Shown: positions 44,459-64,000, counted from the first letter of the stretch. The stretch: DNA of 64,000 nucleotides from Bacillus thermozeamaize (GCA_002159075.1 LZRT01000060.1:3475-67474); one strand, 5' to 3'. Notes: a model not told the origin generated them from the letters alone. Program-made: numbers and translations.

Positions 44459-44483
44459 GATCGTTTCCCCTTTGCATTACCCC

Positions 44484-45101: not shown

Positions 45102-45119
45102 GGTTCTGTATGCTCCGAT

Positions 45120-48100
45120 CTACGTTTTTTTGAGTTCCTGGATAAATGGGCAATTTTCATCCGGTTGCTCCACATCAAGGAAGGCTGCTGTGTAATCTCC
45201 CCGGCTCACGATGCCATCCAGTATTTCGAACAGTTCACCTAATGCCTTCATCGATTCCGGTGTCGCATTTTCCAGTCTGAGGGTGAGTGTTCCTCCGCCT
45301 GGAAGTAGCAGATCGAGGAATTCCATCGTTTTGATTTGAGTCCGGGCTCCTCTATTATAGAGGCTGCCGATGCGGCGAAGAAGAGGGAGGAGCTTGTCCG
45401 CACCTTCTTTTCCGCTTAGATGGAATCCACCTGCTGATGCTTGCTGCCATCCCTTTTGTTTTGCTTGATCAGGAGTGAACAACAGATCGCTTTCGTAAGG
45501 TACGTAAAAAGACGCCTCAAATCCTTGGATGAATTCAGGTTGTTCTGGCGTATAGACATCATATCGGGAAGCCACCAGTTTTCCTTCTTTGACAAGATCG
45601 ATCACGGCCTCTTTTACTTCTTGGTCGGGGAACTGGCCGTATATACTCTGAACTTCGGTGATGACTTGGCCCAAGGTGCTTGTGCCCTTATCACTAATAA
45701 TGTCCAAAACCACTTGTTGAACTTGTTGAGGATCATTCTTTTGCCTTTCTAACCATCCGCGTTGGTTGACGCCCTGTACAGTAATGAGCATATATCCAGG
45801 GGCTGAAAGATCGACATTTAATGGGATTTCTTGGTCCTGATGATATAGCTCGGATGGCGTGCTTTCCCCTTCCGATAAGCGATAAACGCACCATACGCCA
45901 TTTTTGACCCCTGCTCGTATGATTTGTTCAAAAACGGCGGGTGACTCCAGAACAGGCCATTTTCGTACACAGTAGAAGTTGCGCCGCAGATTTTCTAAGG
46001 AAACCGTGTCTTCCAAGCTGAAAAACAGCTGGCGCAGATTGACCAGGTCCTCTTGTGTCGTGTGGCTGTGGGTGATCAGTTCCTTGTCTTGAACCAAAGA
46101 TTCCCGGATGAGCTGTATAAAAGTGGCGCCTCCTTCGCCACCAGCCGTTTTGATGTCTTTGCGCACAATAAATCCAGTGGTAGAGGGATAGTAAAGCCCG
46201 GTGTAAATGGCTGAAACGGCGGTTTGCAACGCCTGTTCACGTTCGCTCCGACGCTCCTTAAAGTCAGATTCCTGCAGGCGGCGCGGGCTGATTCCATAGT
46301 TTTCAGGTTTTTCCGCAAGCGTGCGCATGGCTAACACTTGCCTGGCGACAAGTTCGATTCGTTGACGCGCTTCCTCTGCCTTGGTGCGATGAAGATTGTC
46401 CATGTCCAATTGTTCAGATGTGTCTTTTACGACGACTGTGTCCGGAACCAGAAGAAAAATCAGGTTTTGCTGTTCCCGTGGCCGGTTTGGCCCTTTCGTG
46501 GTGATCATCGCCTCGACATCGATGATCTCTGCTGTGGGTGAGACCACGCCCAAGACTGGTCTGCCTTTTCCATCCGGAAGATGTTCTGGAAGAGTTACAT
46601 CATGTTCTATATGAAACAAATCGGAGTGATTGGAGATGATTTTGCGGGCGGTACCTTTAATCAACTCTTTTACTTGGTCGCGCTCCAGTGTTCTGCGGAT
46701 TCTGGCTAACACACTGTTAATTGTCGGCTCTTCGCTTGCAAAATATCTCCCTTGTTCATGCCGAAGGTAAAAGGCGCTTTCATTGATTTCCTCCAAAGCA
46801 ATGCGCACTTGAGGGGGTGTCAATCCGGGAAAAGAAACACTGAACAAGGCTTCTGATTCAGTAATCCCGAAGATTCTCGAGTTTAATCCTTCTTCCCGTC
46901 CTACCAGGCTGTGCAGGAAAACGGTTTTCCATGTGTATTCGTAGAGTGGATGGCCCTCCGGATGAGGGTTTCGTTGATCAGCCAGTTCTGCATTGCTGTG
47001 CCCGCCTTCTAAAGTACCGGTATCCACACCCCCTACATCTGCATTTAACACGTACAATAAATCTGAAGCGCCTGTCCGGCCGAGGATTTCATTGACCACC
47101 CGATCAGAACGCATGTCCAAGTGGCAAGTATGGATCATGGGTACAGGTTGCTGTTTTTGCCACAAACTACGCACGGCCATCGAAAGTACCCGCAGCACGC
47201 CACGGGTGCCTTGGAAATTTTCGGCGCTAGCCAATTTCTTGTTTAAAAAATCCACCAGTGACGGGTGGAAAGGGTAATTGGCAATCATGCGTTGACGCAG
47301 ATTTTCGCTGACTGCTTCCTCCGGCAACAAGTGCGCGTTGCGCCGATACATTTCCATATATTTTTCAGCGACGGATTGGGCCGCTTCCCGATCCACGGAT
47401 ATAAACAGGCGCTTTGCAAAGACGGATGAAATTTCCGCCGCTTGTACGGGGGTAATCTGAACAGCATCCCGCGCGACCACGCTGGATACACCTTGAACGG
47501 CCTGTTCTCCGATGCTCAATGCATCGTCTTCACTTACTTCTTCTCCGCGCACTTTGCTGATGAGTTGTGCCAATTGCTTGGTCTGTTTGGAAAAAGCATC
47601 TGTCGCACTGGCCAGTGTCAGGACTATGGCGATCCCTGGTTGATTCCGCGCATATCCATGAAGGGCCATCAAGAATGCGGCAAGTTGATCCGCTCCGTTG
47701 GAACGAGCTGCCTCGAGACGTGCCGCATATTGAGCAAGCTCATCCAACATGATAAGAACCTTTTTTCCTTTGAGTACTTTATCAAAATAGTGTTTGCCTG
47801 GCGCAGCGTAAGAGTTGGCATCTTCTTCAACCTCACGGTACAACGATTCTCCACCGATTTGAAAGGCGATTTCTCCCCACAAAGTATACGGCACGAGGTC
47901 TCCTCCCCGGGGTTTGTGAACCGGAATTTCATCTCCGGCTACACCCACGACACAAATCGAATTTGGTTCCGGAAGAAGGGATGGGTCCAGTATATCTTTG
48001 ACCACGTGCCGAAGTTGGGTGCCTTGAAATGCCAGGTGGGTACAAGCGATAAGTGTATGTGTTTTTCCACCACCAAAAGCGGTTTCGAGACGGTGGATTG

Positions 48101-48344
48101 CGGGTACTGTCATGTCGCCGTTTATTCTGCTGAAAATTTCAGTCAAAATTTGGCGGAGGCCTTGCGTTGGATAGGTTGCTTCCTGAAAGAATAGCTCTGC
48201 ATTGGTATAAATGCTGTCCACTGCCGTACGTCCACTTCGATAATACTCGATGATAGGGCTAAGCGAGGCAGTAAAAATTTCCGGATTGAACATTCCAGCT
48301 AAAAGCTCTGGCCGAGGTTGGCATGTTTCGAGTACAGAGCGCAC
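45120..48344 (-). CDS. DUF499-family P-loop ATPase (BrxC/PglY-like)
   Basis: Walker A ETAFGGGKTHT, Walker B VLIMLDELAQY, about 1075 aa. The likely start is GTG 48344 (GGAGGG RBS 9 nt upstream). The ORF track extends to ATG 48419, which lacks an RBS. Confidence 0.8.
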   Translation of the reverse strand: MRSVLETCQPRPELLAGMFNPEIFTASLSPIIEYYRSGRTAVDSIYTNAELFFQEATYPTQGLRQILTEIFSRINGDMTVPAIHRLETAFGGGKTHTLIACTHLAFQGTQLRHVVKDILDPSLLPEPNSICVVGVAGDEIPVHKPRGGDLVPYTLWGEIAFQIGGESLYREVEEDANSYAAPGKHYFDKVLKGKKVLIMLDELAQYAARLEAARSNGADQLAAFLMALHGYARNQPGIAIVLTLASATDAFSKQTKQLAQLISKVRGEEVSEDDALSIGEQAVQGVSSVVARDAVQITPVQAAEISSVFAKRLFISVDREAAQSVAEKYMEMYRRNAHLLPEEAVSENLRQRMIANYPFHPSLVDFLNKKLASAENFQGTRGVLRVLSMAVRSLWQKQQPVPMIHTCHLDMRSDRVVNEILGRTGASDLLYVLNADVGGVDTGTLEGGHSNAELADQRNPHPEGHPLYEYTWKTVFLHSLVGREEGLNSRIFGITESEALFSVSFPGLTPPQVRIALEEINESAFYLRHEQGRYFASEEPTINSVLARIRRTLERDQVKELIKGTARKIISNHSDLFHIEHDVTLPEHLPDGKGRPVLGVVSPTAEIIDVEAMITTKGPNRPREQQNLIFLLVPDTVVVKDTSEQLDMDNLHRTKAEEARQRIELVARQVLAMRTLAEKPENYGISPRRLQESDFKERRSEREQALQTAVSAIYTGLYYPSTTGFIVRKDIKTAGGEGGATFIQLIRESLVQDKELITHSHTTQEDLVNLRQLFFSLEDTVSLENLRRNFYCVRKWPVLESPAVFEQIIRAGVKNGVWCVYRLSEGESTPSELYHQDQEIPLNVDLSAPGYMLITVQGVNQRGWLERQKNDPQQVQQVVLDIISDKGTSTLGQVITEVQSIYGQFPDQEVKEAVIDLVKEGKLVASRYDVYTPEQPEFIQGFEASFYVPYESDLLFTPDQAKQKGWQQASAGGFHLSGKEGADKLLPLLRRIGSLYNRGARTQIKTMEFLDLLLPGGGTLTLRLENATPESMKALGELFEILDGIVSRGDYTAAFLDVEQPDENCPFIQELKKT

Positions 48345-48434
48345 CTTGGATTTCCCTCCGTCGATGATGATCTTCTCATTGTTTTCGACATGAAAAAACA
48401 AAATCCTGCACCTCATCATAGAAGGGATATTTTT

Positions 48435-48471
48435 GTTCTAAGAACATTCATTCGGTGACAAACTTTTGTCA
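48435..48471. promoter_or_regulatory. Two palindromes in the divergent control region between the two defence operons
   Basis: GTTCT-A-AGAAC at 48435-48445 and TGACAAA-CT-TTTGTCA at 48456-48471. Both are perfect inverted repeats and candidate operators. Confidence 0.35.
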
Positions 48472-48524
48472 GAAAGTATTGGTATAACAGCAATAGATTA
48501 ACTTTTACATATTGAGGTGAGTGG

Positions 48525-49646
48525 ATGACGGAAACAAATATGGACTTAGGGCATATGGGTTTAGACCGGCAAATTGACAAGATGTTCTTGCTTCTGGCCA
48601 TTGGCGCGAGGAAATGGCAGGCGGACATAACGCGGGTGCCTGCGGAATTGCATGAAGGGCATTTACGGTTGATTCGGTTCGCCGTCCAGCATCGCGTGCC
48701 TTATCCGGCCGATTTGCACGAGCTGCTTCAATGGCTGCATCGTCCCATAGCAGAATGGCCGCTTCCGCACGTGGCCGAGCGTTTTCCGGCGGATGAGCCG
48801 GTGCTCGTGGATTATGCGGGGTTATCTATCTTTTATGAAGAATGGTTGGAGGAAAACGTTTCTGTGGAAGAGTCGGAACAGAAAGTGATGCGCGAAATAT
48901 TGAGCTATTGCCGGGAGGCCACGCCACCTCTGGAGCAGGCGTATCGAGCGATCCGCACTTTTTTGATTGAACATCCTGTGATTGAATTTATCAAGTTGAG
49001 AGCATTTCTTTTGTCGTTTGACAAGGAATTGCAAGAAAAAGTGCGGGATTGTTACGAAGAGATCAACCTGCCTTATCCCCGAATTTATTTGTGCCCTTAT
49101 TGTGGGTGGACGTTGACAAACCGTGACGGCGAATGGGAATGCACGCGCTGGGTATGCAAGCGCAACAGCGATTTCACACACTTTAATGTGCTGGATACTT
49201 CCGGTCATCAGAAGTACTATCGGCTCACCAAAGGCATTCAAAAATATGTCCAAAACCCGGGGCTTGCCGAGCTGGCACTGGCGCGGAAGCTCGAAGAACG
49301 GGGATGGGATGTGGAACTGTATCCGGACGTGGACCGCGTGGATCTGCGCATCACAAAAGATCAGATGCGAAAAGAGATCGATGTGAAGGATTACAGCCAC
49401 CCGAAGTTGCTGGCCGACTATCTTCTCGCCAAGATGGAGCAGGAAAATTGGGATAAGGATGTCATCTATGTCGTTCCGCAATATCAGGAGCGTTTTCATC
49501 CCGATTATGCGAAACGAGTTTTGCAATATCTCAGGCAGTCCCGGGAGAGATCCCCGCTGAGCGATTCCGCTTTTGAGGCTGCTGTCCAAGAAGTGCAAGT
49601 GATGGCGGAACGAGAATTTTTCATCCGTCTGGGGGAGGAATCATGA
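48525..49646 (+). CDS. Restriction-endonuclease-fold protein with Zn-ribbon (pPIWI-RE-associated REase)
   Basis: CPYCGW...ECTRWVC Zn-ribbon. PD-(D/E)xK-like PDVDRVDLRI...EIDVKDY near the C-terminus. First gene of a coupled three-gene operon (ATGA overlap with gene 2). Confidence 0.7.
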   Translation: MTETNMDLGHMGLDRQIDKMFLLLAIGARKWQADITRVPAELHEGHLRLIRFAVQHRVPYPADLHELLQWLHRPIAEWPLPHVAERFPADEPVLVDYAGLSIFYEEWLEENVSVEESEQKVMREILSYCREATPPLEQAYRAIRTFLIEHPVIEFIKLRAFLLSFDKELQEKVRDCYEEINLPYPRIYLCPYCGWTLTNRDGEWECTRWVCKRNSDFTHFNVLDTSGHQKYYRLTKGIQKYVQNPGLAELALARKLEERGWDVELYPDVDRVDLRITKDQMRKEIDVKDYSHPKLLADYLLAKMEQENWDKDVIYVVPQYQERFHPDYAKRVLQYLRQSRERSPLSDSAFEAAVQEVQVMAEREFFIRLGEES

Positions 49647-52600
49647 GGAAAAACGGGAGGCAAATAACGGAGGATTTGCGGAAACGATTTGTTGATTTGA
49701 CGGGAGACCGGGATGCGGCGGAGATGATTTTTCCGGTCGAGCTTCTCTTATGGGGGTTTTACCAGGTTCATTCGGAGGGGAAGGCTCAAGAGGCGTGGTC
49801 GCTGATTCCGGGCTATGATGAGCCGATTTTGCCGGGGACGCACCGGGAGCTGATTGCCCGTTTGCGGGTGCTGTTTCCCACATTCCGAAACCGCCAGGCT
49901 TGGCACGATCTGATTCAGGAATATCAGGAGATCGATTTGAAGTACCGGCTGTTTGCCATTACACCGGAGGGATATCTTCAGAAAAACACCCCGGACTTCA
50001 TTCCGGATCGGGAAACGGTCTACCGGCAAATTTTGGATAAGCCGATTCCTTTTCATGCCGTCGAGAATACGTTTGCCAAGCCGGGTCTGTTTGTTTATCA
50101 GAGATCGATCGATGGTCAGGTGCAGGAATTTCGCGGGGAGCTTTTTTCTCTCCCGAAAGTGGAAGGGAGAGTTAGGCGTCTGCCGCTTTACCGGTCGAAA
50201 AAACGCGTTGGCGGTTCATTTCCCGCGGACTGGATAGATATGTCCGAGGAGATGGATGAGATCTTGGGTGGGAGCCGTTTTCGGGATTTTGTCCGGCAAA
50301 GCCAATTTATACCTTTAGGGGACAAGCCATTTCAATATGCCGGAAACCTGCACATCGCCGGCGGCTTGGGCGTTGGCAAGTCCACTTTTATCTTGCTTGA
50401 AACCTACCGTCTGGTCAAAAAACATCAGGTGAAAGTGGGCATCATCGAGGGGTCGGTTGAAGGCGTCCTGGAAAAAGTTCGCGAATTGCGCAAGCTCGGG
50501 CTGAAGGCGGTTCCGATCATCGGCAGAAGCAACCGGACAGGGCATTTGGCGGAATTTTTATACTCGGTGAGCAAAAAGGCAGAGGATCTCACCTCGTTGC
50601 GGGAAGAAGCTGCGGACGAGCTCCGGTACCTGTCCGGAAAATGCGTTATTCACGCCTTGGCGGAAGATTTTGCTGGTGACCAGCACTATCCTTGCGCGGC
50701 ACTTCAACAGGAAAAACAGAAGCGATTACTTTGCCCATTGTACGCGCAATGCGGCGTGATTCGTCCGGAATTGGAGCTTGTCGATGCGGATGTGTGGGTG
50801 GCCACCGCCCCCAGCGTCTTAAAGTCCCGTTTTTCGCCGATGGTTGATCCGTATCGAAGGACCTATTATGAAGCGATGTACCAATACCTCGATGTGATTT
50901 TTGTCGATGAGGCCGATCAGGTGCAAATGGCGTTTGATCAGGCCTTTATCGGACAATACGATTTGATCGGCAAGAGCGATGACTTGTTTGGCCGTTTGGT
51001 GCGGTCGACGGCCCCTCGCGTGGCCAGCGATCCGGGGTTATATTCACATACGCTAGTATCAAATTGGCTCAGTCACTTCGATTATCTTCGGAATATCGTC
51101 AATAAAATGTATCATTTGCTGTCCCGTTCCCCTTCTTTGGCATCGTGGTTGAAAAACCGCATCTTTCATGTCTACCGGATTTTACACGATGTGGCGAAAC
51201 ATCTTTGGGGTGAGAACTATCAAGAGCAGGCGGGTTATAAAATGTTGTCAGACTACGCAAAAGAACCCCTCAACCACCTTGTGCTTTCCCCGATTGTCGA
51301 TCAATTGCTGAATCCCATCGATCAGCAGAGGAAAAAAAACCTATTGGCGCAATGTTTAAAAGCGATCGCGAACGAAGAAAAGCGATATGAAGACGAACCC
51401 AAACTGTTTCAGAAACTGGAGTTTTTCCTCTATCTGGCCCGCATTGACGAACATCTGCGGTATCTCACAACCAATCATCTGTATGTCAACCCGTATCTGA
51501 ATTTGGAAGAAGAGATTGGGCAGATGTTTCGCACGACGCCGAGGGATTATCACCCCTTTATCAAGGACAGCATGACCGGCCTGTTGTTGGGATACCGTTA
51601 CCTTGCTACGGACGGAGTCCGGGAAGGGCATTTCAAGCTCCTTGAATATAACGGGGTAGGCAGGGAATTGCTGAAAGACTGGCACCGCATTTATGAAGAT
51701 GCCGACCAGTGGGAAGGGCCAGCGGTCGTGTTTTTGTCAGGGTCCAGTTACGCGCCCGGGTCGCATCATTTTCACCTCGACATTCCGGTTCATTGGCTCT
51801 TGATATCCCAGCGGGAGAAGCCTTGGATTGATCAGCGGTTGAGACTGATTCCCGATTTGGAAGCCAATCGCTACCTGTATGTGTCTGGCACAAGGCATCG
51901 GGAAGAACGGACGTTGGCGATTCAGAAAATGGTGCGAGATTTGAAGGGGACAATTGCCAGTGAATTGGCATACTGGCGGGACGAAAACCGGAAAATCTTG
52001 CTTGTAGTGAATTCGTACGAGGATCTTGAGGGCGTCCGTGAAGTGTTACAATCCGATCCAGACTGGAAAGATTGCTTTCGTCTGTTGTCCAGAGAGAGGG
52101 TGGAAGAGGGGCATTTCATTCCCAAACGGTTTATCCGAGATTTTGCGCAGGAAGAGGCGGACGTTTTGGCGGTGCCCCTGACGGCCGTAAGACGCGGTTA
52201 CAACATTTTGCAACCGGATACCGGCCGTTCTCTGTTCGGCAGCGTCTTCTTCCTGGTGCGTCCATACCACGTCCCAGGGGATATGGCCTACATCATCCCG
52301 TCCTTACACGGTTACTTGCCTTCATATTTAAGGACGATCGGTTCGAAACGCCTTCAATACGAAGATGGGATCAAACACTTGCGGCATAAGAGTATTCAGT
52401 TTTTGGAGGATATGGTCCGCAAGCCGCAATTTTGGGCTCTCTTGGACGAAGATGAACGCCGGCTGTTGTCTTGGTACACCTTTATCCTCGTGTGGCAGAT
52501 GATCGGCCGCCTGTTGCGCGGGGGCACCAATGCCCGCGTCTGGTATGTGGACAGCAAATTTGCCCACCCACATGGCGTACATGGGACAGGGGTAGAAGAC

Positions 52601-52732
52601 AGCATGCTGGCTAGTTGGAAACAGATGTTGCAGGAATTGGCGGGCGACCTGATTGTGCAGGAACTCTACGGCCCATTTATGCAATCGATAGACCATTTGA
52701 TTAACAGTGAAAGGGAGATAGCGGATGTCTAA
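49643..52732 (+). CDS. SF2 helicase, XPD/DinG-like with putative 4-Cys Fe-S insert
   Basis: Walker A GGLGVGKST, Walker B VIFVDEADQ, motif VI QMIGRLLRG. Four Cys (C-x16-C-x12-C-x5-C) lie between Walker A and B, where XPD/DinG helicases carry their 4Fe-4S domain. Confidence 0.75.
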   Translation: MRKNGRQITEDLRKRFVDLTGDRDAAEMIFPVELLLWGFYQVHSEGKAQEAWSLIPGYDEPILPGTHRELIARLRVLFPTFRNRQAWHDLIQEYQEIDLKYRLFAITPEGYLQKNTPDFIPDRETVYRQILDKPIPFHAVENTFAKPGLFVYQRSIDGQVQEFRGELFSLPKVEGRVRRLPLYRSKKRVGGSFPADWIDMSEEMDEILGGSRFRDFVRQSQFIPLGDKPFQYAGNLHIAGGLGVGKSTFILLETYRLVKKHQVKVGIIEGSVEGVLEKVRELRKLGLKAVPIIGRSNRTGHLAEFLYSVSKKAEDLTSLREEAADELRYLSGKCVIHALAEDFAGDQHYPCAALQQEKQKRLLCPLYAQCGVIRPELELVDADVWVATAPSVLKSRFSPMVDPYRRTYYEAMYQYLDVIFVDEADQVQMAFDQAFIGQYDLIGKSDDLFGRLVRSTAPRVASDPGLYSHTLVSNWLSHFDYLRNIVNKMYHLLSRSPSLASWLKNRIFHVYRILHDVAKHLWGENYQEQAGYKMLSDYAKEPLNHLVLSPIVDQLLNPIDQQRKKNLLAQCLKAIANEEKRYEDEPKLFQKLEFFLYLARIDEHLRYLTTNHLYVNPYLNLEEEIGQMFRTTPRDYHPFIKDSMTGLLLGYRYLATDGVREGHFKLLEYNGVGRELLKDWHRIYEDADQWEGPAVVFLSGSSYAPGSHHFHLDIPVHWLLISQREKPWIDQRLRLIPDLEANRYLYVSGTRHREERTLAIQKMVRDLKGTIASELAYWRDENRKILLVVNSYEDLEGVREVLQSDPDWKDCFRLLSRERVEEGHFIPKRFIRDFAQEEADVLAVPLTAVRRGYNILQPDTGRSLFGSVFFLVRPYHVPGDMAYIIPSLHGYLPSYLRTIGSKRLQYEDGIKHLRHKSIQFLEDMVRKPQFWALLDEDERRLLSWYTFILVWQMIGRLLRGGTNARVWYVDSKFAHPHGVHGTGVEDSMLASWKQMLQELAGDLIVQELYGPFMQSIDHLINSEREIADV

Positions 52733-55214
52733 AGTCATGCAATTGTACTCATTTCCCGTGGATTTGAAGTCCGTTCCTGAAATCCCGCTGTATGCTTTGT
52801 CCATGCCAAAACCGTGGCGGGATTATCTTGCTCAATTTAAAGAGGGGGAGTATAAGTACCGCTTTAAGCTGCACGGGTTGGGAGACAAACTGGAAGCTGT
52901 CTTTCCCAGCATTATTTCTAGCCATTTTTCAACACAAGTGGTGAAGGACGGGAAGCCTTGGATCATTGCGACGGAGAAGCTGGATTTGGATGTGATTACT
53001 CAGATGTTTCTAAGCTGGTTGAAAGTGAAGGCCGGCAACGGTGTCACTGATCCCGGTCTGCTTCGTCAGTTGCAGGAACTTCCGGATTGGGATTGGAGCA
53101 CTTTTGATTTGGAACGGGATGTCTACGACGAAAGTATCTTGTACAAGGTGGTGCCGGGGCTGTTTGCCCATTCGTTTTGCCGCGAGCCGGTTTATTTTGA
53201 TATCGGCGGCCAAGAGCTTTCATTCTATCCGATTGCTGCGGCGGAAAATGGGTATGAATGCATGTCCGAGCCCATCCAGCGAAAGGGAGGCGCTTTTTCA
53301 TATGTCCTCCGATTGCGGTTGGTCACCCGCGGCCTTCGGGCGGAACAAAAGTGTCTCAACGTCAGAGTTGGTATTCGCCGCTTTGTGTTGCAACCAGTAA
53401 TTGAAAAGAAGTACTGCTTATTGCGATGGCAAAAGCGGTCTTCGATCTATCTCTCCCTCAACAATCCTTACATAAAACAGGATCGAGTTTCATTTGCGAA
53501 ATTGTTTGCTGTGCGAGACAATCGCCGGGAACAGGAACGCAAAACCAAGTGGGAGGATGAATTTGAAGAATATTGTTCCGACCTGGTCTCACGGCAACAT
53601 TTGTCGACAGATGCCATTTATTGCGATCCAAAGGCGTATTTTCAAGGGGTAAACGGCATTCGAGCCTTCATCACCTATTCACCTGCCGCCTTTACTATCA
53701 ACTATGGGGCGATACGCCCCGGTGCCGGCCTGTATGAGCGAAAAACACTTTTTGAGCGGTTTCAAGAAAGATTTCCGCAACTGAACTTATTGCCGCCTTT
53801 GCCTAGCATCGAGGTTCGGGATCGCCGGGAACGGAAACCAGTCCCACCCAAAAGGGATTCGATCTATACGCTGGAAGTTTGGTCAAAGGACATGGCGTTT
53901 TTTCAGGCCGTTTGTGAGCAGACTGGGGAAATCCTCGATACCTCTCCTTCCGAAACGTTGCCATCCTCTGTTTCCTTTCCCGTGGCGGATCCGGATACAG
54001 GCGAGATCCAGTGGGAACTGCGCGTTGTCCATAAGGATCCCGGTGTTATGGTATCCCCCTTGGACGACAGGCTGGCAACAGCGAAGGAAACGTTTAATCA
54101 AAAAGGAATCCAAAAAAGAATCGGCGAAATTCGCCGGTTTGTGGAACAGGCCAGGGAGAAGCCGATGATGGCGCTGGTGGAAATTGAAGATTATCCCAAT
54201 CATGAGCAGCCAACGATGCGAAAAAATGACCCCAAACATGCTGTGAGGATCGGGATGTTGCGCACGGGACGAATCACGCAATTTATCCATCCTTTTGGGG
54301 ATGATGAGCAGGAAAACACGGCACGGGTTCAAAACGCCCTTTACGATTTGTTTTCTGACCGGGGATTCTTGGATTCGAGGTGGCATTTTCTCCAGCATGA
54401 TGCGATGATCGTGGGCTTTGATTATCTATATCCAAAGATAGAGTGGACGAGCGAAGAAGGGGCCAGGCTGTGGAAACGCGGTATCATTCCGATCATGAGC
54501 TGGGTCCGGAATGGCGAGGTTTATGTGAAAATCGGCCGGAGAAAATGGGAAACGTTTGACCGCGCATTGCTGAGTTTTGATCCCTATGCGATGAAGGAGC
54601 AAACGCTGGATCAAGGTTTGATTGAGGGGTATGTGGCGAAAGAGGTTCAAGAGATTCTGGCGCAAACCGAACAACAGGTGTATTTGTTTGTCAACGCCGC
54701 CCTTCGCCGCCACTTATGGCACAGATTGGCCAATGACCGCATTCAGCTGGATCAACTGCCATTTGAACACGCGTTTGCGGGTCAGGAAAGACTACGGGTG
54801 ATCCGGATCAACACGACCGACGAGGTTCCTTACGCCGATGTGCCCAACGTGAAAGGGGAGCCGACGAGAGGTCAGGGATTGTTCAAGGATAGCCCTGGAA
54901 TCTACTATAGTGTGGGTGCCAGACCCGACACGATGCAGATTTCCAAGGAGAAAAATAAGTGGGAGAATCCACGGACGATGATTGTCAAACAGCGGGTAGT
55001 GGAAATTATTCCATTAGGTTGTTCCACGGAAGAGGAAAGGGATCAACTGGCCATTCTGACCCATCAATTGCGGCAAGTCAGCCTAACATACAAGGAGCAC
55101 ACGATCCTGCCTTATCCGCTTAAACGGTTGCAGGCATTTGAGAAATATATGAAGTCGATGGATGAGGTTGAAACCGTGGATGGATTTGAGGAGTTGGGGG
55201 ATGAGTCGGATTAG
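52725..55214 (+). CDS. pPIWI-RE-type Argonaute-like protein
   Basis: 829 aa. MID-like loop RIGMLRTGRITQFI (compare human Ago2 LGMATQCV). PIWI-like strand MIVGFDY. Second catalytic position reads LFVNAA. C-terminal LPYPLKRLQAFEKY. The operon context REase + DinG-like helicase matches the three-gene pPIWI-RE island described computationally by Burroughs, Iyer and Aravind. Confidence 0.7.
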   Translation: MSKVMQLYSFPVDLKSVPEIPLYALSMPKPWRDYLAQFKEGEYKYRFKLHGLGDKLEAVFPSIISSHFSTQVVKDGKPWIIATEKLDLDVITQMFLSWLKVKAGNGVTDPGLLRQLQELPDWDWSTFDLERDVYDESILYKVVPGLFAHSFCREPVYFDIGGQELSFYPIAAAENGYECMSEPIQRKGGAFSYVLRLRLVTRGLRAEQKCLNVRVGIRRFVLQPVIEKKYCLLRWQKRSSIYLSLNNPYIKQDRVSFAKLFAVRDNRREQERKTKWEDEFEEYCSDLVSRQHLSTDAIYCDPKAYFQGVNGIRAFITYSPAAFTINYGAIRPGAGLYERKTLFERFQERFPQLNLLPPLPSIEVRDRRERKPVPPKRDSIYTLEVWSKDMAFFQAVCEQTGEILDTSPSETLPSSVSFPVADPDTGEIQWELRVVHKDPGVMVSPLDDRLATAKETFNQKGIQKRIGEIRRFVEQAREKPMMALVEIEDYPNHEQPTMRKNDPKHAVRIGMLRTGRITQFIHPFGDDEQENTARVQNALYDLFSDRGFLDSRWHFLQHDAMIVGFDYLYPKIEWTSEEGARLWKRGIIPIMSWVRNGEVYVKIGRRKWETFDRALLSFDPYAMKEQTLDQGLIEGYVAKEVQEILAQTEQQVYLFVNAALRRHLWHRLANDRIQLDQLPFEHAFAGQERLRVIRINTTDEVPYADVPNVKGEPTRGQGLFKDSPGIYYSVGARPDTMQISKEKNKWENPRTMIVKQRVVEIIPLGCSTEEERDQLAILTHQLRQVSLTYKEHTILPYPLKRLQAFEKYMKSMDEVETVDGFEELGDESD

Positions 55215-55574
55215 AATCTCGATAAAAAGCCTTTGTATGTTCTAGGATGAAACAACAAGACATTTGGAATTGAAAGGCGAGTTTCCATAGTTCGGCTTTC
55301 AACTTGCATATTTACATTTGTATTTGAATTGTATTTGGAGATTTGTATTTGGATGATTTAAGATATGAAACAGTATTTTTGATGTCGTCGATCGGCAATC
55401 ATGCAAAAATCCTGGGAGATCGACGACACATTTATTTGGAAGTCTAAACATGTCTTCGATCCATGGAAGACGTGAGTTTCAAGGAATTTTGATTGTCCGT
55501 TATCTTCCAAAACGAATTAAAATCATCTATAATCCCTTTTAAGGAAAAGTATTGATATGATGGGACCGAAATGG
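55215..55574 (+). promoter_or_regulatory. CRISPR leader
   Basis: AT-rich 360-bp region on the leader side of the array. Perfect TATAAT at 55528-55533, about 42 nt before repeat 1. Three TTGTATTTG copies at 55318, 55329 and 55343. A 10-bp perfect hairpin at 55384-55427. Confidence 0.6.
55384..55427 (+). other. Perfect 10-bp inverted repeat (possible terminator of the pPIWI-RE operon or leader element)
   Basis: GTCGTCGATC (55384-55393) pairs with GATCGACGAC (55418-55427) across a 24-nt loop. Only a weak T-run follows (ACATTTATTT). Confidence 0.35.
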
Positions 55575-58500
55575 GTTTGTAGCTTACCTATGAGGGATTG
55601 AAACGAGTATGACACGGATGATAAGATGGTCTCTTATAAGGGTTTGTAGCTTACCTATGAGGGATTGAAACACGGCTTCAGAAGATGACCAATTGGAAAT
55701 CGTGGTGACGGTTTGTAGCTTACCTATGAGGGATTGAAACAAGGCCAAATACTTCACACGACCGCGAAAGTTGGACTTTGTTTGTAGCTTACCTATGAGG
55801 GATTGAAACCTCTACGCATAAAAATAGTTGACATCGTACGCTACAGGTTTGTAGCTTACCTATGAGGGATTGAAACCGGTATAGCGGTAGATTCTAATAA
55901 AAATATATATGGTTTGTAGCTTACCTATGAGGGATTGAAACTGGCATTTTCCTATCCATAAATCCAGCCGTTTACCGTTTGTAGCTTACCTATGAGGGAT
56001 TGAAACTTGGATGCATACACCGTCCGGGTGCGCTGTTCTGTGAGTTTGTAGCTTACCTATGAGGGATTGAAACACCGTTGGCATACAGCAATGCGTCTGA
56101 ACGCCATTTCCGTTTGTAGCTTACCTATGAGGGATTGAAACACCTTTGGCATGTCTCACACCCCTATTCCAGCGGCTCGTTTGTAGCTTACCTATGAGGG
56201 ATTGAAACAGGGAAAGGTGGTGGATATATACGCAAATGCACCGAGTTTGTAGCTTACCTATGAGGGATTGAAACCCAAAGGCGTTTCATCCTTTAATTCC
56301 CACACCCCAAGTTTGTAGCTTACCTATGAGGGATTGAAACGGCGCATTCCTTCCGATAGGATTCCTTCAGAAGATACGTTTGTAGCTTACCTATGAGGGA
56401 TTGAAACTAGTGCTCCAGTGTAAATTTCGCCATTTTAATCCTGTCGTTTGTAGCTTACCTATGAGGGATTGAAACACGAAACCTTGTCTTCATCGGCCTA
56501 TGGATGGCGGCGTTTGTAGCTTACCTATGAGGGATTGAAACGTAATAGCCCTGGAGAGCAGGACAGAAACATTGCGAAGTTTGTAGCTTACCTATGAGGG
56601 ATTGAAACTTCGGAAGGGGAATGTCCCGATCAACTCGGCCACGAGGTTTGTAGCTTACCTATGAGGGATTGAAACCCAGATGTTCCCGAACGCAACGCGG
56701 TTGTCACGGCAAGTTTGTAGCTTACCTATGAGGGATTGAAACTATTCCTCGCGGTGGGCTTCGTTGGCCGAATCGTAGAGTTTGTAGCTTACCTATGAGG
56801 GATTGAAACAGGTATGGTAAAAAGCACAACGGATTGGGCAATCCGCGTTTGTAGCTTACCTATGAGGGATTGAAACTGACGAAAGCTTCCCAATTTATGG
56901 CAAAGCGGATGCGAGTTTGTAGCTTACCTATGAGGGATTGAAACATGGGAACCTCGTTTACCGTTGTAAAACGACGGTCAATGTTTGTAGCTTACCTATG
57001 AGGGATTGAAACTCCTTCCTTCCGTTGACCACCTGCGCATCCGCATCACTGTTTGTAGCTTACCTATGAGGGATTGAAACTCCTTCCTTCCGTTGACCAC
57101 CTGCGCATCCGCATCACGGTTTGTAGCTTACCTATGAGGGATTGAAACCGGGATAGTCGTTACACCTTACGGTTGTTTGGCATGTTTGTAGCTTACCTAT
57201 GAGGGATTGAAACAAGGGGATGAAGCGGACGGCATCTTGCAGATCGATGTGTTTGTAGCTTACCTATGAGGGATTGAAACAATCCTTCCTCGCCCCGCCG
57301 ATTTTCTCCCCGACATCGTTTGTAGCTTACCTATGAGGGATTGAAACGCTTCTCCTTTAATGTGATATGTACCGTAGGATCTCCAAGTTTGTAGCTTACC
57401 TATGAGGGATTGAAACGATGCATAATTCACGTAGTTTACGATCGTAATCAATGGTTTGTAGCTTACCTATGAGGGATTGAAACCTCATCTTTTCTTCGGC
57501 TATGCGGATGTCGGAAATGGGTTTGTAGCTTACCTATGAGGGATTGAAACGGGTATGGCCACTCCGGAAAAAGATCCAACTCTCGCGTTTGTAGCTTACC
57601 TATGAGGGATTGAAACCTTTCTTTCAGTCTTGGCACGTGCAACCGTCCCGGGTTTGTAGCTTACCTATGAGGGATTGAAACTTTTGCGCTGCATCGGCTT
57701 TGCGGCTTTGCGCTCTCAGTTTGTAGCTTACCTATGAGGGATTGAAACTGAAGCCTGCGGCTGGCTTCCGCCTCATCGGACGCCTGTTTGTAGCTTACCT
57801 ATGAGGGATTGAAACGCGATCGCCCTAGCAATCTTACGCGTGACGTAAGCATGTTTGTAGCTTACCTATGAGGGATTGAAACTCCAACTTAACCATTCAC
57901 TTCCCTAACGTCACATACACGTTTGTAGCTTACCTATGAGGGATTGAAACTTAGCCCGTCGAACAAGCCGTTGGCTGCAAGTGGCGTGTTTGTAGCTTAC
58001 CTATGAGGGATTGAAACGCGGCGAAAAGAGGAAGCGCGTGGAAGTGTACCACAAGTTTGTAGCTTACCTATGAGGGATTGAAACGCGCAACCCCATCGCC
58101 AATCGTGCATGATAGTGGCCTGTTTGTAGCTTACCTATGAGGGATTGAAACATGTACCGGATGGGTGCCGTATCGAGCAATCCATCCAGTTTGTAGCTTA
58201 CCTATGAGGGATTGAAACCCGGTTTCATGATGCCGCCTCCTGTCTTTTTCGCAGTTTGTAGCTTACCTATGAGGGATTGAAACTACCCCTCCAACAGGCA
58301 AACCTTGGAATGAAAGCCAGTTTGTAGCTTACCTATGAGGGATTGAAACGTCTACGTCATCACCTCCACACCTAGATTGCCTGTCAGTTTGTAGCTTACC
58401 TATGAGGGATTGAAACGACTCAGCCAACTGCCAAGCCCTTCCACTGCAGTCGCGTTTGTAGCTTACCTATGAGGGATTGAAACAAGCTTCCGGGCCACCG

Positions 58501-61397
58501 GTTACCGTCACCATAAAAGCGTTTGTAGCTTACCTATGAGGGATTGAAACAAGCTTAGCAATCAGTCCATCGTGATCCTAGCTGAAGTTTGTAGCTTACC
58601 TATGAGGGATTGAAACCGTCCGCGCATACATACCTGTCAGCAAGCATCTCTTTCGTTTGTAGCTTACCTATGAGGGATTGAAACATCCGATCAACACCAG
58701 TTATGTCGTCAAGCAATTTTGGTTTGTAGCTTACCTATGAGGGATTGAAACTTAGAGTCGGGGCTCCCGTCGTAGCATGCCCTTGCTGGTTTGTAGCTTA
58801 CCTATGAGGGATTGAAACGCATTGGCTTCAGCTATGGATCTTTGCTGATCCGCATAGTTTGTAGCTTACCTATGAGGGATTGAAACATCCTGATCAACAC
58901 CAGTATAGTCGTCAGCAATGTATTGGTTTGTAGCTTACCTATGAGGGATTGAAACAAGAGCAACCATTTCCTCAATGGTTTGCAACAATGGAGTTTGTAG
59001 CTTACCTATGAGGGATTGAAACGCTTGGTCAATGCCTCTCTAAGAGCCTGAAACGTCTTCGTTTGTAGCTTACCTATGAGGGATTGAAACAAGGAATCAA
59101 TGCCCGTTTGGTTGATTTAAAGAACGGTTTGTAGCTTACCTATGAGGGATTGAAACCTCGGTCAAGGAATTCCCTTTGTCTGCTTGTTCATCCGGTTTGT
59201 AGCTTACCTATGAGGGATTGAAACGTGGATGAATAGTATTCGTGATCAGGTGGTGGTTAACGTTTGTAGCTTACCTATGAGGGATTGAAACTAAGGTTCA
59301 CCACCATATTCAAACCACTCCGTGATCCGGTTTGTAGCTTACCTATGAGGGATTGAAACGCTCAGCTTCCATGTCGATTGAAACGTTGACTGTTTATGTT
59401 TGTAGCTTACCTATGAGGGATTGAAACTGCGCCTATACCTACGACGAAGCTGTGAAAACCCTCGGTTTGTAGCTTACCTATGAGGGATTGAAACGAAATA
59501 TTTGGGGCAGACGCTTGGACAAGCAGGGGGGGGTTTGTAGCTTACCTATGAGGGATTGAAACGGGGTGGCCTTATGGTTGACCCTGAAGGATTCAAAAGT
59601 TTGTAGCTTACCTATGAGGGATTGAAACGATTCGTTCGCGCCGATAGGTAGCAGGTAGTCCCAGTTTGTAGCTTACCTATGAGGGATTGAAACAAGAACC
59701 TCGCAAGCCGTGACCCTTCCAGCTACTGTTAGTTTGTAGCTTACCTATGAGGGATTGAAACAGAATTTCTGAGATTTTCAATGCTGTTAATATACGGGTT
59801 TGTAGCTTACCTATGAGGGATTGAAACCGGCAGAGAAACGAGCTTGCCTACCGTCACGAGTACCGTTTGTAGCTTACCTATGAGGGATTGAAACATAATG
59901 GTATTATAAAATATGTCTAAGTTTCTTGTGGGAGTTTGTAGCTTACCTATGAGGGATTGAAACTAATATCACATTTTACGGGCATATGCCCGTTTTTTGT
60001 TTGTAGCTTACCTATGAGGGATTGAAACGTTTATCAGTTGATAAGGCATATGCATTACGTGGACTGTTTGTAGCTTACCTATGAGGGATTGAAACATCTT
60101 CATAGTCCAACTCAACAAAATTTGGAGCGTGTTTGTAGCTTACCTATGAGGGATTGAAACCCGCCTTGAATATTTCTTTGTAGGTTTTTGCGACAGTTTG
60201 TAGCTTACCTATGAGGGATTGAAACACGTATTTAAGCAACCTTTGTGCAACATGTTTCAATTCATGTTTGTAGCTTACCTATGAGGGATTGAAACACGTA
60301 TTTAAGCAACCTTTGTGCAACATGTTTCAATTCATGTTTGTAGCTTACCTATGAGGGATTGAAACACAAACATATCTAGCAAAAGTGCAACCATATCCAG
60401 TGTTTGTAGCTTACCTATGAGGGATTGAAACCTACATACACCACTTCTTCAAACACATCATCCATGTGTTTGTAGCTTACCTATGAGGGATTGAAACATG
60501 TCGTAGACAACCCTTCGACTAACATCAAGCTGTTGGTTTGTAGCTTACCTATGAGGGATTGAAACAAGTCAGAGCGACATGAGGGATATACCGTTCATTG
60601 GGTTTGTAGCTTACCTATGAGGGATTGAAACGATTATGTCCGTGATCAACCATCTCTTGTGGCTTTTAGTTTGTAGCTTACCTATGAGGGATTGAAACCA
60701 CTGAGTTTTCGGAAGTTGAAGGCGGAATGTACGGTGGTTTGTAGCTTACCTATGAGGGATTGAAACGAACAACATGGGCCTGATTCTGTTAGTTGTTCCT
60801 CTCCGGTTTGTAGCTTACCTATGAGGGATTGAAACTGTTTCCTGTACCTAATCCTAATCCTGTTCCGCAGCGTTTGTAGCTTACCTATGAGGGATTGAAA
60901 CGCCGGAACCGGGCCCGGAACCATATCCGGAACCTGTGCGTTTGTAGCTTACCTATGAGGGATTGAAACTACTTCCTATCCCATACCCTGAATTTCATCT
61001 CCCTCGTTTGTAGCTTACCTATGAGGGATTGAAACGTGACGGCTGGAGATGGTTCTGTAGAGGTACATAAAAGTTTGTAGCTTACCTATGAGGGATTGAA
61101 ACATATAGCTCCTGCATCCCCTTCCAGAGCACTGCGAGTTTGTAGCTTACCTATGAGGGATTGAAACACATGGTGGTGTTGGACGAGCTGTCGTCATTCA
61201 AAAGTTTGTAGCTTACCTATGAGGGATTGAAACCCGCATCCCTGAACAAGTGCGCGTCACCCAACGCAGGTTTGTAGCTTACCTATGAGGGATTGAAACC
61301 GGTCCGAACAGCCTCTTCAAAACCGACGCCAGTCAGTTTGTAGCTTACCTATGAGGGATTGAAACATGGTGTGATTGGTCACCGGAGCGCGGGTGTG

Positions 61398-62962
61398 AGT
61401 TGAGTCCGTATAATTGTGTAAAATTGGATCCTCTCTGTAAAAAAAGAGAGCCATTTTCAATTCCCCTCGGTTAGAATGTAGTTGACCTGACAACATTCCA
61501 AGGAGAGGGGAATTTGAAATGGCTCAATATCAGATTACCGTAGATTCGCAACTGTTGCATCAACTTTTTCTTAGTAACTCGCAGGATGCGGGAGTAACCA
61601 AGCTGCTGGAATCCGTATTGAACCAAGTGTTGCAAGCCCAGGCAACGGAACAGTTGGGGGCAGAGCCCTACGAACGGACGGAAGGACGCCAAGGATATCG
61701 AAACGGGACGTATCCGCACCAATTAACCACTCGTGTTGGCACCATTACGCTTCGTGTTCCCCGAATTCGTAACGGAAAGTTCTCAACGGAGTTGTTTGCC
61801 CGTTACCAACGCAGCGAACAAGCTCTGGTATTGGCTTTGATGGAGATGGTGGTCAACGGAGTGTCGACTCGAAAAGTGGCCCAGATCACGGAAGAGTTAT
61901 GCGGTACGGAGTTTTCGAAATCCACGGTGTCGGAATTGTGCAAGCGTCTCGATCCTGTCGTGACGGCCTGGAACAACCGTCCGCTTCATGACAACCCGTT
62001 TCCCTTTGTCATCGTTGATGCGCTGGTACTCAAAGTGCGGGAAGAAAGTCGAGTGCGGTCCCGAGGCGCTCTTATCGGGATTGGTGTCAACACCGACGGA
62101 TATCGCGAGGTATTGGGCTTGATGCTTGGCGACAGCGAGTCGGAAGCCAGTTGGAGTGAATTTTTTGGCTGGCTGAAAAGCCGCGGGCTTCGAGGCGTCG
62201 ATCTGATTGTGTCGGATGACCACGGAGGATTGGTTCGAGCCATCCGCAGGAACTTTCAAGGCGTCACCTGGCAGCGGTGCCAGACACACTTCCTGCGCAA
62301 TATTCTGGATGCCACGCCGAAAGCGCTGCAGGATGAGGTACATAGCCGGGTACGAGCCATTTTGGATGCACCTGATCACGATACGGCACGGCTGCTCCTG
62401 AATCAGGTACTGGAGGCATACGAAACGAAAGCTCCGAAAGCCATGGCAGTCCTGGAAGCTGGTTTTGAAGACGCGACGGCGGTCTTGCTTTTGCCGGAAA
62501 AGTATCGCAAGCGACTCCGTACCACCAATGCTCTGGAGCGCCTGAATGAGGAAATCCGCCGCCGTGAACGGGTGATTCGGATCTTTCCGAATCGTGAATC
62601 GGCCATACGTCTGATCGGTGCATTGCTCATGGAAATCGATGAGAAATGGGCAAGCGGCAGAAAGTATTTGGATATGGGTGAATATCTGGAGTGGCGCGAA
62701 TCACAGGTCACCAACATGAGTGCCAAAGTCACGCGTATCGGCTAACGGACGTCTATCGCAGCCTGTCAAAGCCGCGAAGCGTTCCATTTGGCCTTGACAG
62801 GCAATTGCTCAACACACTATAACTGCCCAGCAATCCTTTGCTGGGCATGCCACACGGCGAGTGACGGGGAGCAGGGGGCGTGCTTCCTGCGTCTCCCCCT
62901 TCGGGGGAAGGAATGAGGTATTCTAACCGAGGGCGAATTTACACACAAATATGGACTTGATC
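61398..62962 (+). mobile_element. IS256-family insertion sequence inside a CRISPR spacer
   Basis: Imperfect terminal inverted repeats: left AGTTGAGTCCGTATAATTGTGTAAAATT, right reverse-complement GATCAAGTCCATATTTGTGTGTAAATT. An 8-bp direct duplication CGGGTGTG flanks it at 61390-61397 and 62963-62970. Removing the IS and one duplicate restores a 37-nt spacer. Confidence 0.85.
61519..62745 (+). CDS. IS256-family (Mutator-type) transposase
   Basis: 408 aa with typical IS256 transposase sequence (RQGYRNGTYPHQLTTRVGTITLRVPRIRNGKFSTELF...VSDDHGGLVRAI...WQRCQTHFLRNIL). Confidence 0.93.
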   Translation: MAQYQITVDSQLLHQLFLSNSQDAGVTKLLESVLNQVLQAQATEQLGAEPYERTEGRQGYRNGTYPHQLTTRVGTITLRVPRIRNGKFSTELFARYQRSEQALVLALMEMVVNGVSTRKVAQITEELCGTEFSKSTVSELCKRLDPVVTAWNNRPLHDNPFPFVIVDALVLKVREESRVRSRGALIGIGVNTDGYREVLGLMLGDSESEASWSEFFGWLKSRGLRGVDLIVSDDHGGLVRAIRRNFQGVTWQRCQTHFLRNILDATPKALQDEVHSRVRAILDAPDHDTARLLLNQVLEAYETKAPKAMAVLEAGFEDATAVLLLPEKYRKRLRTTNALERLNEEIRRRERVIRIFPNRESAIRLIGALLMEIDEKWASGRKYLDMGEYLEWRESQVTNMSAKVTRIG

Positions 62963-63581
62963 CGGGTGTGTGCGAGTTTGTAGCTTACCTATGAGGGATT
63001 GAAACGTTGAATGTATAAACATTCAATCGTTAACTTTATCAAGTTTGTAGCTTACCTATGAGGGATTGAAACCTTGCGACAATTTGGCGAAACAACCGGT
63101 CAGCTTCGTTTGTAGCTTACCTATGAGGGATTGAAACCGATTTCTTCCGGTCTCATTATTATCACCCCCTTCGTTTGTAGCTTACCTATGAGGGATTGAA
63201 ACTGAGTATGCCATATCCCTTCTGAGGGCGGTGGGATGAGTTTGTAGCTTACCTATGAGGGATTGAAACGAACAGCATCAAAAGGTTAATCGAAGAAAGA
63301 ATGAGGTTTGTAGCTTACCTATGAGGGATTGAAACACGCTGGCGCAGGCCGCCGAAAAATTTGGGATCCACCGTTTGTAGCTTACCTATGAGGGATTGAA
63401 ACTTGGAATTCAAAGTCACCACGGGATTCAGGAATTGAGTTTGTAACCTACCTGTAAGGGATTGAAACTTGATCTTGCTCTTTTAGTTTTCGAACCGATT
63501 TTTTTGTTTCCGATCCTATCTGTGAGTGTTGCCAGCGGTTGCAAATGACAAAAATACTATCCAAAAGAAGGTGTAAACATC

Positions 63582-64000
63582 CGTGTCCATTTCCGGTTTG
63601 TCTTTTTTCTGTTCCTGGAGCGGCGGGAAAGATTCCGCGTTGGCGCTTTACCATGCCTTGCGCGACAATGGAAAGGCGCGCTTTCTTTTCACCATGCTTC
63701 ATGAGGATGGGCTTCGTTCACGTTCCCATGGCTTGCCCGTGTTACTCTTGGAAAAACAGGCACAAAGCTTGAACATTCCTTTGGTGACCAGAGCCGCCTC
63801 ATGGAATGATTACGAAAAGGTTTTTACGGAAGAATTGCACCGCTTTAAAAAGTTGGGTGTACAGGCGGGAGTCTTTGGAGACATCGACCTGGAGGAGCAC
63901 CGATTGTGGGAGGAGAAGGTGTGCCAGGCGGCATCCCTTTCAGCTTGTTTGCCCTTATGGCAGCGCCCGCGGCGGGAACTGGCTGAAGAATTTATCGATC
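63582..64000 (+). CDS. PP-loop ATP pyrophosphatase (MJ0570/Dph6-related), 3'-partial
   Basis: This frame is not in the ORF track because it runs off the window. GTG at 63582 follows AGAAGGTG. It translates as VSISGLSFFCSWSGGKDSALALYHA...GVFGDIDLEEHRLWEEKVC, with the SGGKDS PP-loop and the overall pattern of the diphthine-ammonia-ligase-like family. Confidence 0.6.

Follow-up and report, generated by a model that had tools for sequence, protein, structure and literature searches.

Argonaute proteins of the Marinitoga piezophila clade (MpAgo) are reportedly encoded within loci that combine clustered regularly interspaced short palindromic repeats (CRISPR) with CRISPR-associated (cas) genes (Kaya et al. 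2016). Another family of PIWI-domain proteins, pPIWI-RE, was defined by a neighbourhood survey in which its genes were found only alone or in a three-gene operon (Burroughs et al. 2013). For the three-gene system (Burroughs, Iyer & Aravind 2013; pAgo type III in PADLOC), a published model and one biochemical study have short RNA guides or RNA–DNA hybrids direct the restriction of invading DNA. The member from Pseudomonas stutzeri (PsPIWI-RE) cuts DNA in vitro when provided with RNA guides of at least 10 nt carrying either a 5'-phosphate or a 5'-hydroxyl, its residues D525 and D610 being essential (PMC10991935). Here, we study a locus in which such an operon is followed, on the same strand, by a long CRISPR array of the CRISPR-DR2 repeat family. 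It lies in a stretch of 64,000 nucleotides (GCA_002159075.1 LZRT01000060.1:3475-67474; hereafter “the window”), itself part of a 108,948-bp contig of the thermophilic compost metagenome-assembled genome (MAG) “Bacillus thermozeamaize”, also known as BZ2 (3.44 Mb, 143 contigs, ~95% complete; Lemos et al. 2017, PMC5395642). A preliminary description of this DNA had proposed that array transcripts are a source of guides for the pPIWI-RE machinery, or that this machinery is an effector for CRISPR RNAs (crRNAs), and had kept as a null hypothesis the juxtaposition of the two in a defence island, with cas genes supplied in trans. According to our analysis, the null hypothesis fits better: we estimate at about 80% the probability that two independent defence modules sit side by side in one island and that the array is served in trans by Cas proteins. 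This reading is preferred because a type I-B cas operon exists on the same contig, because the array acquires spacers in a polarised fashion, because its leader carries a palindrome common to the repeat family and because distant pPIWI-RE operons are devoid of arrays.

The three genes of the operon (48525-55214; Table 1) had been recognized in the preliminary description as encoding a restriction endonuclease (REase), a helicase and a pPIWI-RE protein, and this identification is correct, as judged from both Pfam and PADLOC, with all Pfam matches exceeding the family thresholds. The PprDinG gene overlaps both of its neighbours by a few bases on the same strand, so that gene order, domains and overlapping start and stop codons are those of the described three-gene system, as is the location in a defence island. 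The window protein departs from it by an Asn at the second RNase H position: in our alignment, the catalytic D566 is kept, but the second position is N657, where P0003 and P0005 have an Asp. Because of this Asn, the PIWI domain is probably nuclease-dead, like that of many family members, and, as the definition of the family allows for inactive RNase H members (Burroughs et al. 2013), N657 does not exclude the protein from pPIWI-RE. Two further residues, R694 (within a VIRxN motif) and E760, are the same in all five aligned sequences and would match the published R/E positions of the PIWI beta-sheet extension, which are specific to the family, judging from their spacing only. Among solved structures, no PDB sequence match was found for the pPIWI-RE or DinG proteins. 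What sets this operon apart is the CRISPR array directly downstream, a neighbour that descriptions of the family do not mention.

The coordinates previously given for this junction hold: the pPIWI-RE gene ends at 55214 and repeat 1 begins at 55575 on the same strand, after a gap of 360 nt. From there to 63468, the array consists of 95 copies of the 30-nt repeat GTTTGTAGCTTACCTATGAGGGATTGAAAC, of which 94 are perfect and the last (63439-63468) is degenerate, with four mismatches; its spacers are 35-40 nt long (mode 37). The gathering score of the Rfam family CRISPR-DR2 (RF01315) is reached by 95/95 repeats, 94 copies scoring 47.5 bits against a threshold of 37 bits. The copy number, the extent and the degenerate last repeat reported earlier were thus recovered, but not the continuity of the array, since an insertion sequence (IS) of the IS256 family (61398-62962) had been overlooked. 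This element splits the array into 87 and 8 repeats, with 1610 bp between repeats 87 and 88, and is flanked in spacer 87 by an 8-bp target duplication (CGGGTGTG at 61390-61397 and 62963-62970). Once the IS and one copy of the duplication are subtracted, spacer 87 is restored to 37 nt.

That the array looked “cas-less” is, for cas genes in general, an effect of the window, because its edge falls 15 kb short of a cas operon. Within the window itself, the earlier statement that no cas gene occurs in the 55 kb upstream of the array or in the remaining sequence is borne out by our Pfam and/or PADLOC scan of open reading frames (ORFs), which covered ORFs of at least 100 amino acids (aa) in six frames, with the longest or plausible one scanned at each position and shorter overlapping ORFs left out. 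On the contig, the label “cas-less” no longer holds. The ENA contig ERZ795023 NODE_133 (45,089 bp), reached by an exact look-up of the IS transposase, has its first 3,688 bases 100% identical to window positions 60313-64000, so that it continues the window. At 18.5-26.8 kb, it encodes a complete type I-B operon, cas6b-cas8b-cas7b-cas5b-cas3b-cas4b-cas1b-cas2b (L074 1599-9844), in which 8/8 Cas proteins strongly match I-B PADLOC models (e.g., Cas1b E=1e-142, Cas3b E=5e-224). NCBI also names the Cas proteins (OUM88537-OUM88543, on the 108,948-bp contig) as “subtype I-B” proteins of Bacillus thermozeamaize. In window-equivalent coordinates, the operon starts at ~78,850, i.e., ~15.4 kb past the end of the array, and the nearest of its cas genes is reached only ~23.6 kb after the pPIWI stop codon, beyond unrelated genes. 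More generally, this case shows that the edge of a window can make an array look cas-less.

After the cas operon come a second copy of the IS and then a second array (L074 11691-16425) of 73 spaced copies, some of them degenerate; the total of 74 from the repeat search includes a solitary copy upstream of cas6. The I-B operon is probably cognate to this array of its own. The spacers of the second array are 35-39 nt long and have the same mode of 37 as those of the window array, a likeness compatible with related integrases but not decisive. The solitary degenerate repeat (TTTTTATTTGAACGATGAGGGATATAAAG) is found at L074 1288-1316, between metH and the cas operon. As for the second IS copy (L074 9879-11445, between cas2 and the second array), the window element is 100% identical to it over 1567 bp. 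The two copies have the same orientation, lie ~25 kb apart (the target duplication of the second being CCAAGGAG), and recombination between them would delete the entire cas operon.

The spacers of the window array are unique, except for two adjacent pairs, 70/71, which are identical (60226-60335), and 22/23, which are alike at 37/38 nt (56945-57118). The second array likewise has an identical pair, spacers 63 and 67. Duplicated spacers in both arrays point to tandem duplication of repeat-spacer units or to repeated acquisition. Regarding targets, the whole array matched nothing but its IS in INPHARED (phages) and, in PLSDB (plasmids), nothing but further arrays of its repeat family, four leader-proximal spacers had no exact match in IMG/VR, and comparing all spacers with all the loci gathered in this analysis revealed neither a protospacer nor a self-target. 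As no protospacers were found, the protospacer-adjacent motifs of the window array and of the second array are not comparable.

The history of the array can be read from a sister strain, represented by a metagenome contig (L079) with the same order of pPIWI gene, 360-nt leader, array and PP-loop gene. Its pPIWI protein has 96% amino-acid identity to that of the window, and the nucleotide identity of its operon genes is 95.2-97.4%. The sister array has 38 repeats and is devoid of the IS. Only 1/37 of its spacers is common to the window: the last one, which corresponds to window spacer 94 (63403-63438), the trailer-most, whereas the other 36 spacers of the sister strain and the other 93 of the window are strain-specific. 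Since the only spacer common to both strains is at the trailer end, new spacers are added at the leader end, and the array has kept growing by polarised acquisition on the pPIWI-proximal side since the strains diverged. Such acquisition implies that a Cas1–Cas2 integrase acts on this leader, and no such enzyme can come from the pPIWI-RE operon. The polarity advanced in the preliminary description is hence confirmed by two independent observations, the trailer-end spacer common to both strains and the leader conserved across the family. Rfam placed the repeats on the “-” strand; this placement was set aside, as the “+” strand is indicated alike by the leader, by the degenerate last repeat and by the oldest spacer, which both strains have. 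Finally, the two flanks of the array, i.e., the 360-nt leader and the 532 nt after the trailer (63469-64000), are 100% identical between the two strains, whereas the operon genes differ by 2.6-4.8%, which suggests either that these flanks are strongly constrained or that the tract has recombined recently.

The leader is A-T-rich, as previously reported (34% G+C over 360 nt), with a perfect TATAAT at 55528-55533, i.e., a -10 box at -47 from repeat 1. It ends in the window version (CCGAAATGG) of a junction that is conserved across the leaders of CRISPR-DR2-family arrays, AAA(A/C/T)(T/C)GG immediately followed by GTTTGTAG. Upstream of the -10 box lies a palindrome (Table 1) whose family consensus is TGTCGTCGAYC...GTGCAAAAACCCC...GRTCGACGACA, the loop GTGCAAAAACCCC being conserved. 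The corresponding pattern, GTCGTCGA-N28-TCGACGAC, always spans 44 nt and sits 121-154 nt ahead of the first repeat both in the window and in eight other loci, for a chance expectation of 0.01 within the window. These loci belong to the sister strain, to Bacillaceae bacterium BSNK01 (L076), to two Candidatus Caldatribacterium contigs (L010, L015), to both arrays of Ammonifex thiophilus, where they adjoin cas1 or cas4, to an array of a Bacillota MAG adjoining cas1, and to a mini-array of the Aneurinibacillus thermoaerophilus phage-plasmid pAT1 (L092). In a third Caldatribacterium contig (L073), the palindrome occurs near the single repeat in the available sequence. Its spread thus covers Atribacterota, several lineages of Bacillota and one phage-plasmid.

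A hairpin at 55384-55427 had been considered as a possible barrier to read-through from the operon. Its identification as an intrinsic terminator was rejected, for it has no U-tract, no terminator was called there and the fold of the palindrome (-18.7 kcal/mol) has a z-score of only -1.5. Judged by its sequence and distribution, the palindrome is instead a CRISPR-leader element of the repeat family, not an operon-specific terminator. It has no match in Rfam, and because its stem is sequence-invariant across taxa, without covariation, it would fit a DNA site or a protein-binding site better than a mere RNA stem. Its putative function may be that of a docking site for the integrase or for a host factor, and its nearly fixed distance from repeat 1 across phyla may interest researchers working on spacer integration. 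Altogether, the window array carries a complete, generic family leader, with nothing tailored to the pPIWI-RE operon. Farther from the array (55316-55359), between the pPIWI stop codon and the palindrome, the distal leader contains ~3.3 tandem copies of a 14-nt unit (ATTTGTATTTGGAG); BSNK01 has a 14-nt tandem repeat too (GTCCTATAAAAATC x2), right after the pPIWI stop codon (L076 12444-12471).

To situate the array among its relatives, representative genomes were scanned for the repeat with two variable positions allowed, which yielded 72 loci in thermophilic lineages (Ca. Caldatribacterium, Thermotogota, Dictyoglomaceae, Armatimonadota, Thermomicrobium, Ammonifex, Synergistaceae and Peptococcaceae, among others), six of them with the exact repeat. 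Elsewhere, identical or near-identical repeats adjoin a Cas6b (L014; PADLOC PDLC01782, E=1.4e-79), a III-B cluster (Cmr1/Cas10b/Cmr3/CARF-RelE; L059) or cas3-cas4-cas1-cas2, the Cas1 proteins of the latter being 44-47% identical to the BZ2 Cas1. The preliminary description had assumed that the slot next to a leader is normally occupied by cas genes. This is not so in the present family, where 12/17 arrays whose leader-side flank extends over 1.5 kb or more lack any I-B cas homologue in the 3 kb next to the leader (queries were I-B proteins only, so that type III genes would escape). With the type I-B/III-B CRISPR-DR2 arrays of thermophiles (...ATTGAAAC), the window array shares the 30-nt repeat with its ATTGAAAC 3' end, the 35-40-nt spacers, the degenerate terminal repeat, the polarised acquisition, the palindrome and the junction motif; it differs in having no adjoining cas genes, the nearest operon (I-B, 15 kb away) having another repeat and another leader. 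With orphan or mobile-element arrays that rely on Cas proteins in trans, it shares a complete leader and the absence of flanking cas genes, and the same leader-repeat module is found on pAT1 and in multiple remote arrays of Caldatribacterium and Peptococcaceae MAGs, but the window array is unusually long for this category (95 repeats) and chromosomal. The mini-array of pAT1 (L092 15001-15360) is itself cas-less, with six repeats of the family and the full leader module; pAT1 also encodes tail, baseplate, holin, ParM and LexA-like genes, and its mini-array looks like a case of a mobile element exploiting the Cas proteins of its host.

If the pPIWI-RE operon and the array worked together, one would look for each beside the other in further genomes, a check already called for in the preliminary description. 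Relatives of the pPIWI-RE protein were five proteins retrieved by word-indexed search, alone or with a profile, seven metagenome loci and one distant plasmid match, and viral contigs yielded none, so that the comparison rests on about seven lineages. No array was found within about 10-15 kb on either side of four distant three-gene pPIWI-RE operons (26-30% identity; L077, L080, L083, L091), the first of which, from B. manliponensis, adjoins a BREX system, nor within 10 kb upstream of the pPIWI-RE locus L082. Conversely, homologues of the REase, DinG and PIWI proteins were present in 0/72 of the family loci (at most 8 kb of sequence each). The association did recur in one relative, BSNK01, where an array of 40 repeats (GTTTGTATCGTACCTTTAAGGAATTGAAAC) stands 1.5 kb upstream of the pPIWI-RE operon, in divergent orientation and with a GGDEF gene between. 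The flanking genes of BSNK01 are unlike those of the window, and its leader palindrome is nearer to the family consensus than it is to the palindrome of the window. We read this as a juxtaposition that arose a second time, separately, rather than as a block inherited by both. We take this recurrence as weak evidence, because a genome with this repeat family often has many arrays and because arrays cluster in defence islands.

Under the reading that we prefer, the first module is a standard pPIWI-RE system, in which the PIWI protein would probably be no more than a sensor, leaving the cutting to the REase in line with the model of Burroughs et al., and the guides would come from elsewhere than the array. 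The second is a canonical CRISPR-DR2 array with a complete leader of its own (the palindrome, from about -190 to -148, the -10 box, at -47, and the conserved junction), from which it would be transcribed on the “+” strand. New spacers are added at the pPIWI-proximal end, by Cas1–Cas2 that would act in trans, and array transcripts would be processed by a Cas6 into crRNAs with an 8-nt 5' tag (AUUGAAAC). The source of the Cas proteins could be the I-B operon 15 kb downstream, a cognate cas locus elsewhere in the 95%-complete genome, or both.

Several observations weigh against this reading. To begin with, the array beside the I-B operon has another repeat (GTTTTATCTGAACGTAGTGGGATATAAAG) and another leader, in which the palindrome is lacking, and the Cas6b of the contig is 22% identical to the Cas6b beside the identical-repeat array (L014), the best PADLOC Cas6b model also being a different one. 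The preliminary description had named a complete I-B or III cas operon with an identical repeat as a finding that would count against a role of pPIWI-RE; a complete I-B operon does exist in the same genome, but its repeat differs. Moreover, no cas6, integrase or effector cognate to the window repeat was identified on the 108-kb contig, none of the best 120 of the 783 homologues of the L014 Cas6b is named B. thermozeamaize, and the look-ups of P0017 and P0045 pointed to other, unrelated genomes. Between the pPIWI-RE operon and the array, the terminator search made no call, and RNA guides with a 5'-OH are usable in vitro by a PIWI-RE protein (PMC10991935). Finally, the only close relative of the operon, that of BSNK01 (PIWI 60%, DinG 70%, REase 61%), is also near an orphan array of the family, the leader end of this array faces the operon and no cas genes occur in the 22 kb seen.

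It is mostly from these observations that a functional coupling draws its appeal, i.e., that array transcripts or crRNAs guide pPIWI-RE as a Cas-independent effector, with a Cas1–Cas2 elsewhere only writing the memory. Operon and array are co-oriented and 360 bp apart, the arrangement is kept in the sister strain, the sole other member of the subclade has its own orphan array in a different island context, no cognate Cas6 or effector was found on the contig, and PsPIWI-RE works in vitro with 5'-P or 5'-OH RNA guides, so that crRNA-like guides are chemically conceivable. The MpAgo clade also counts in its favour, with a PIWI-domain protein beside CRISPR components and with 5'-OH RNA guides being acceptable to MpAgo, as they are to PsPIWI-RE in vitro, but the MpAgo gene is embedded among cas genes, whereas the window protein has no adjacent cas genes, belongs to another PIWI family and has REase and DinG partners. 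The geometry differs as well between the two genomes, co-directional and downstream in the window versus divergent and upstream, beyond a GGDEF gene, in BSNK01. Both arrays have the generic family leader, which is also seen beside cas1/cas2 and on a phage-plasmid, distant pPIWI-RE operons are without arrays just as family arrays are without pPIWI-RE, and the promoter-like -10 box of the array stands at the place typical of the family, so that read-through from the operon is not needed. By analogy with Argonautes, the invariant 8-nt tag would fill the seed of the guide, and an extra 5' trimming would be needed. Considering also that thermophile genomes with this repeat family hold many arrays, one chance recurrence in a defence island is not rare. 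With an I-B operon on the contig, a generic leader and no reciprocal association, the proposal of the preliminary description is not supported, and we regard such a coupling as very improbable, what credit it keeps coming from the recurrence in BSNK01 and from the cognate Cas6 not being found. Restricted to the pPIWI-RE subclade of B. thermozeamaize and BSNK01, the idea of a Cas-independent effector guided by the neighbouring CRISPR-DR2 array is, if anything, slightly harder still to credit, and the same slim odds apply to its supply of guides, which would be crRNAs after extra 5' trimming or unprocessed array transcripts, with Cas1–Cas2 elsewhere writing the memory. If true, coupling would provide the first Argonaute-family effector reading CRISPR memory, a question that has been standing ever since Ago genes turned up within cas loci. 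Our evidence points the other way, towards an ordinary trans-served array of a very widespread thermophile repeat family in a crowded defence island.

The lack of an identified cognate Cas6 or Cas1 might also mean that the array is stranded, i.e., a recently orphaned remnant whose cognate cas module was lost from the lineage and which is no longer used for interference, and the IS256 copies in the array and between cas2 and the second array do suggest some decay of the CRISPR loci. Yet, 94/95 repeats are perfect, spacer turnover is nearly complete between strains whose flanking genes are 95-98% identical, and the 360-nt leader is 100% conserved between them. In a MAG that is ~95% complete and in 143 contigs (PMC5395642), a missing cas locus says little. 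We consider this explanation unlikely, albeit less so than a coupling, and retain two independent modules, with the array served in trans.

Table 1. Coordinates of the main features of the locus and of the leader palindrome in other loci (positions refer to the window unless a locus is named).
Feature	Position	Strand	Evidence and remarks
PprRE, gene 1 of the pPIWI-RE operon (domain Y and restriction-endonuclease fold, 373 aa)	48525-49646	+	PF18154 E=6.5e-22; PF18156 E=9.7e-13; PADLOC PprRE E=2.3e-34
PprDinG, gene 2 (domain Z and DinG-type helicase, 1029 aa)	49643-52732	+	PF18155 E=1e-17; PADLOC PprDinG E=1.6e-108
pPIWI-RE protein, gene 3 (X, MID and RNase H/PIWI domains, 829 aa)	52725-55214	+	PF13111 E=3e-49; PF18157 E=5.5e-17; PF13032 E=2.4e-30; PADLOC PprPIWI E=2e-120
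Leader/intergenic region (360 nt, 34% G+C)	55215-55574	+	ends in junction motif CCGAAATGG at 55574
Leader palindrome/hairpin (46 nt), TGTCGTCGATC...GATCGACGACA	55383-55428	+	147 nt before repeat 1
Array, leader-proximal part (repeats 1-87, spacers 1-86)	55575-61365	+	all repeats perfect
IS256-family element (1565 bp)	61398-62962	+	inside spacer 87; transposase ORF 61519-62745, PF00872 E=7e-132
Array, trailer part (repeats 88-95)	62976-63468	+	terminal repeat 63439-63468 degenerate
Hma-like defence system, complete	37257-48419	-	Pfam and PADLOC matches to HmaA/PLD_Helicase, HmaB and HmaC; divergent from the pPIWI-RE operon
PLD/SNF2 helicase (Hma-like system)	37257-41174	-	
DUF1156 methyltransferase (Hma-like system)	41207-44458	-	
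DUF7680 protein (Hma-like system)	44484-45101	-	
DUF499/DUF7744 ATPase (Hma-like system)	45120-48419	-	
PP-loop ATPase, start (Diphthami_syn_2 family, SGGKDS motif)	63583-64000	+	runs off the window; PF01902 E=9.8e-45; equals L075 3271-3927
Palindrome, Ca. Caldatribacterium	L010 5457-5500		
Palindrome, Ca. Caldatribacterium	L015 844-887		
Palindrome	L047 1164-1207		
Palindrome	L054 4835-4878		
Palindrome	L056 6856-6899		
Palindrome, third Caldatribacterium contig	L073 155-198		
Palindrome, BSNK01	L076 4497-4540		
Palindrome, sister strain	L079 9282-9325		
Palindrome, pAT1	L092 14803-14846		

The surroundings of the locus change in composition and content along the window. The first 36 kb hold housekeeping genes (nos cluster, glycerate kinase, Liv transporter, MnmA and others), and the G+C content goes from 54% (1-36229) to 48.5% (36230-55214). 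The gene after the array is a PP-loop ATPase, as announced in the preliminary description (Table 1). The Hma-like system, together with genes downstream of the window (L075) for an AAA_5 ATPase, an 804-aa protein and an HD-phosphohydrolase, marks a defence island of roughly 60 kb. At the other end of the window (2612-9655, “-” strand), this thermophilic Bacillales MAG encodes a nitrous-oxide reductase cluster with a NosZ-like propeller/cupredoxin protein, NosD, an ABC ATPase and a cytochrome c.

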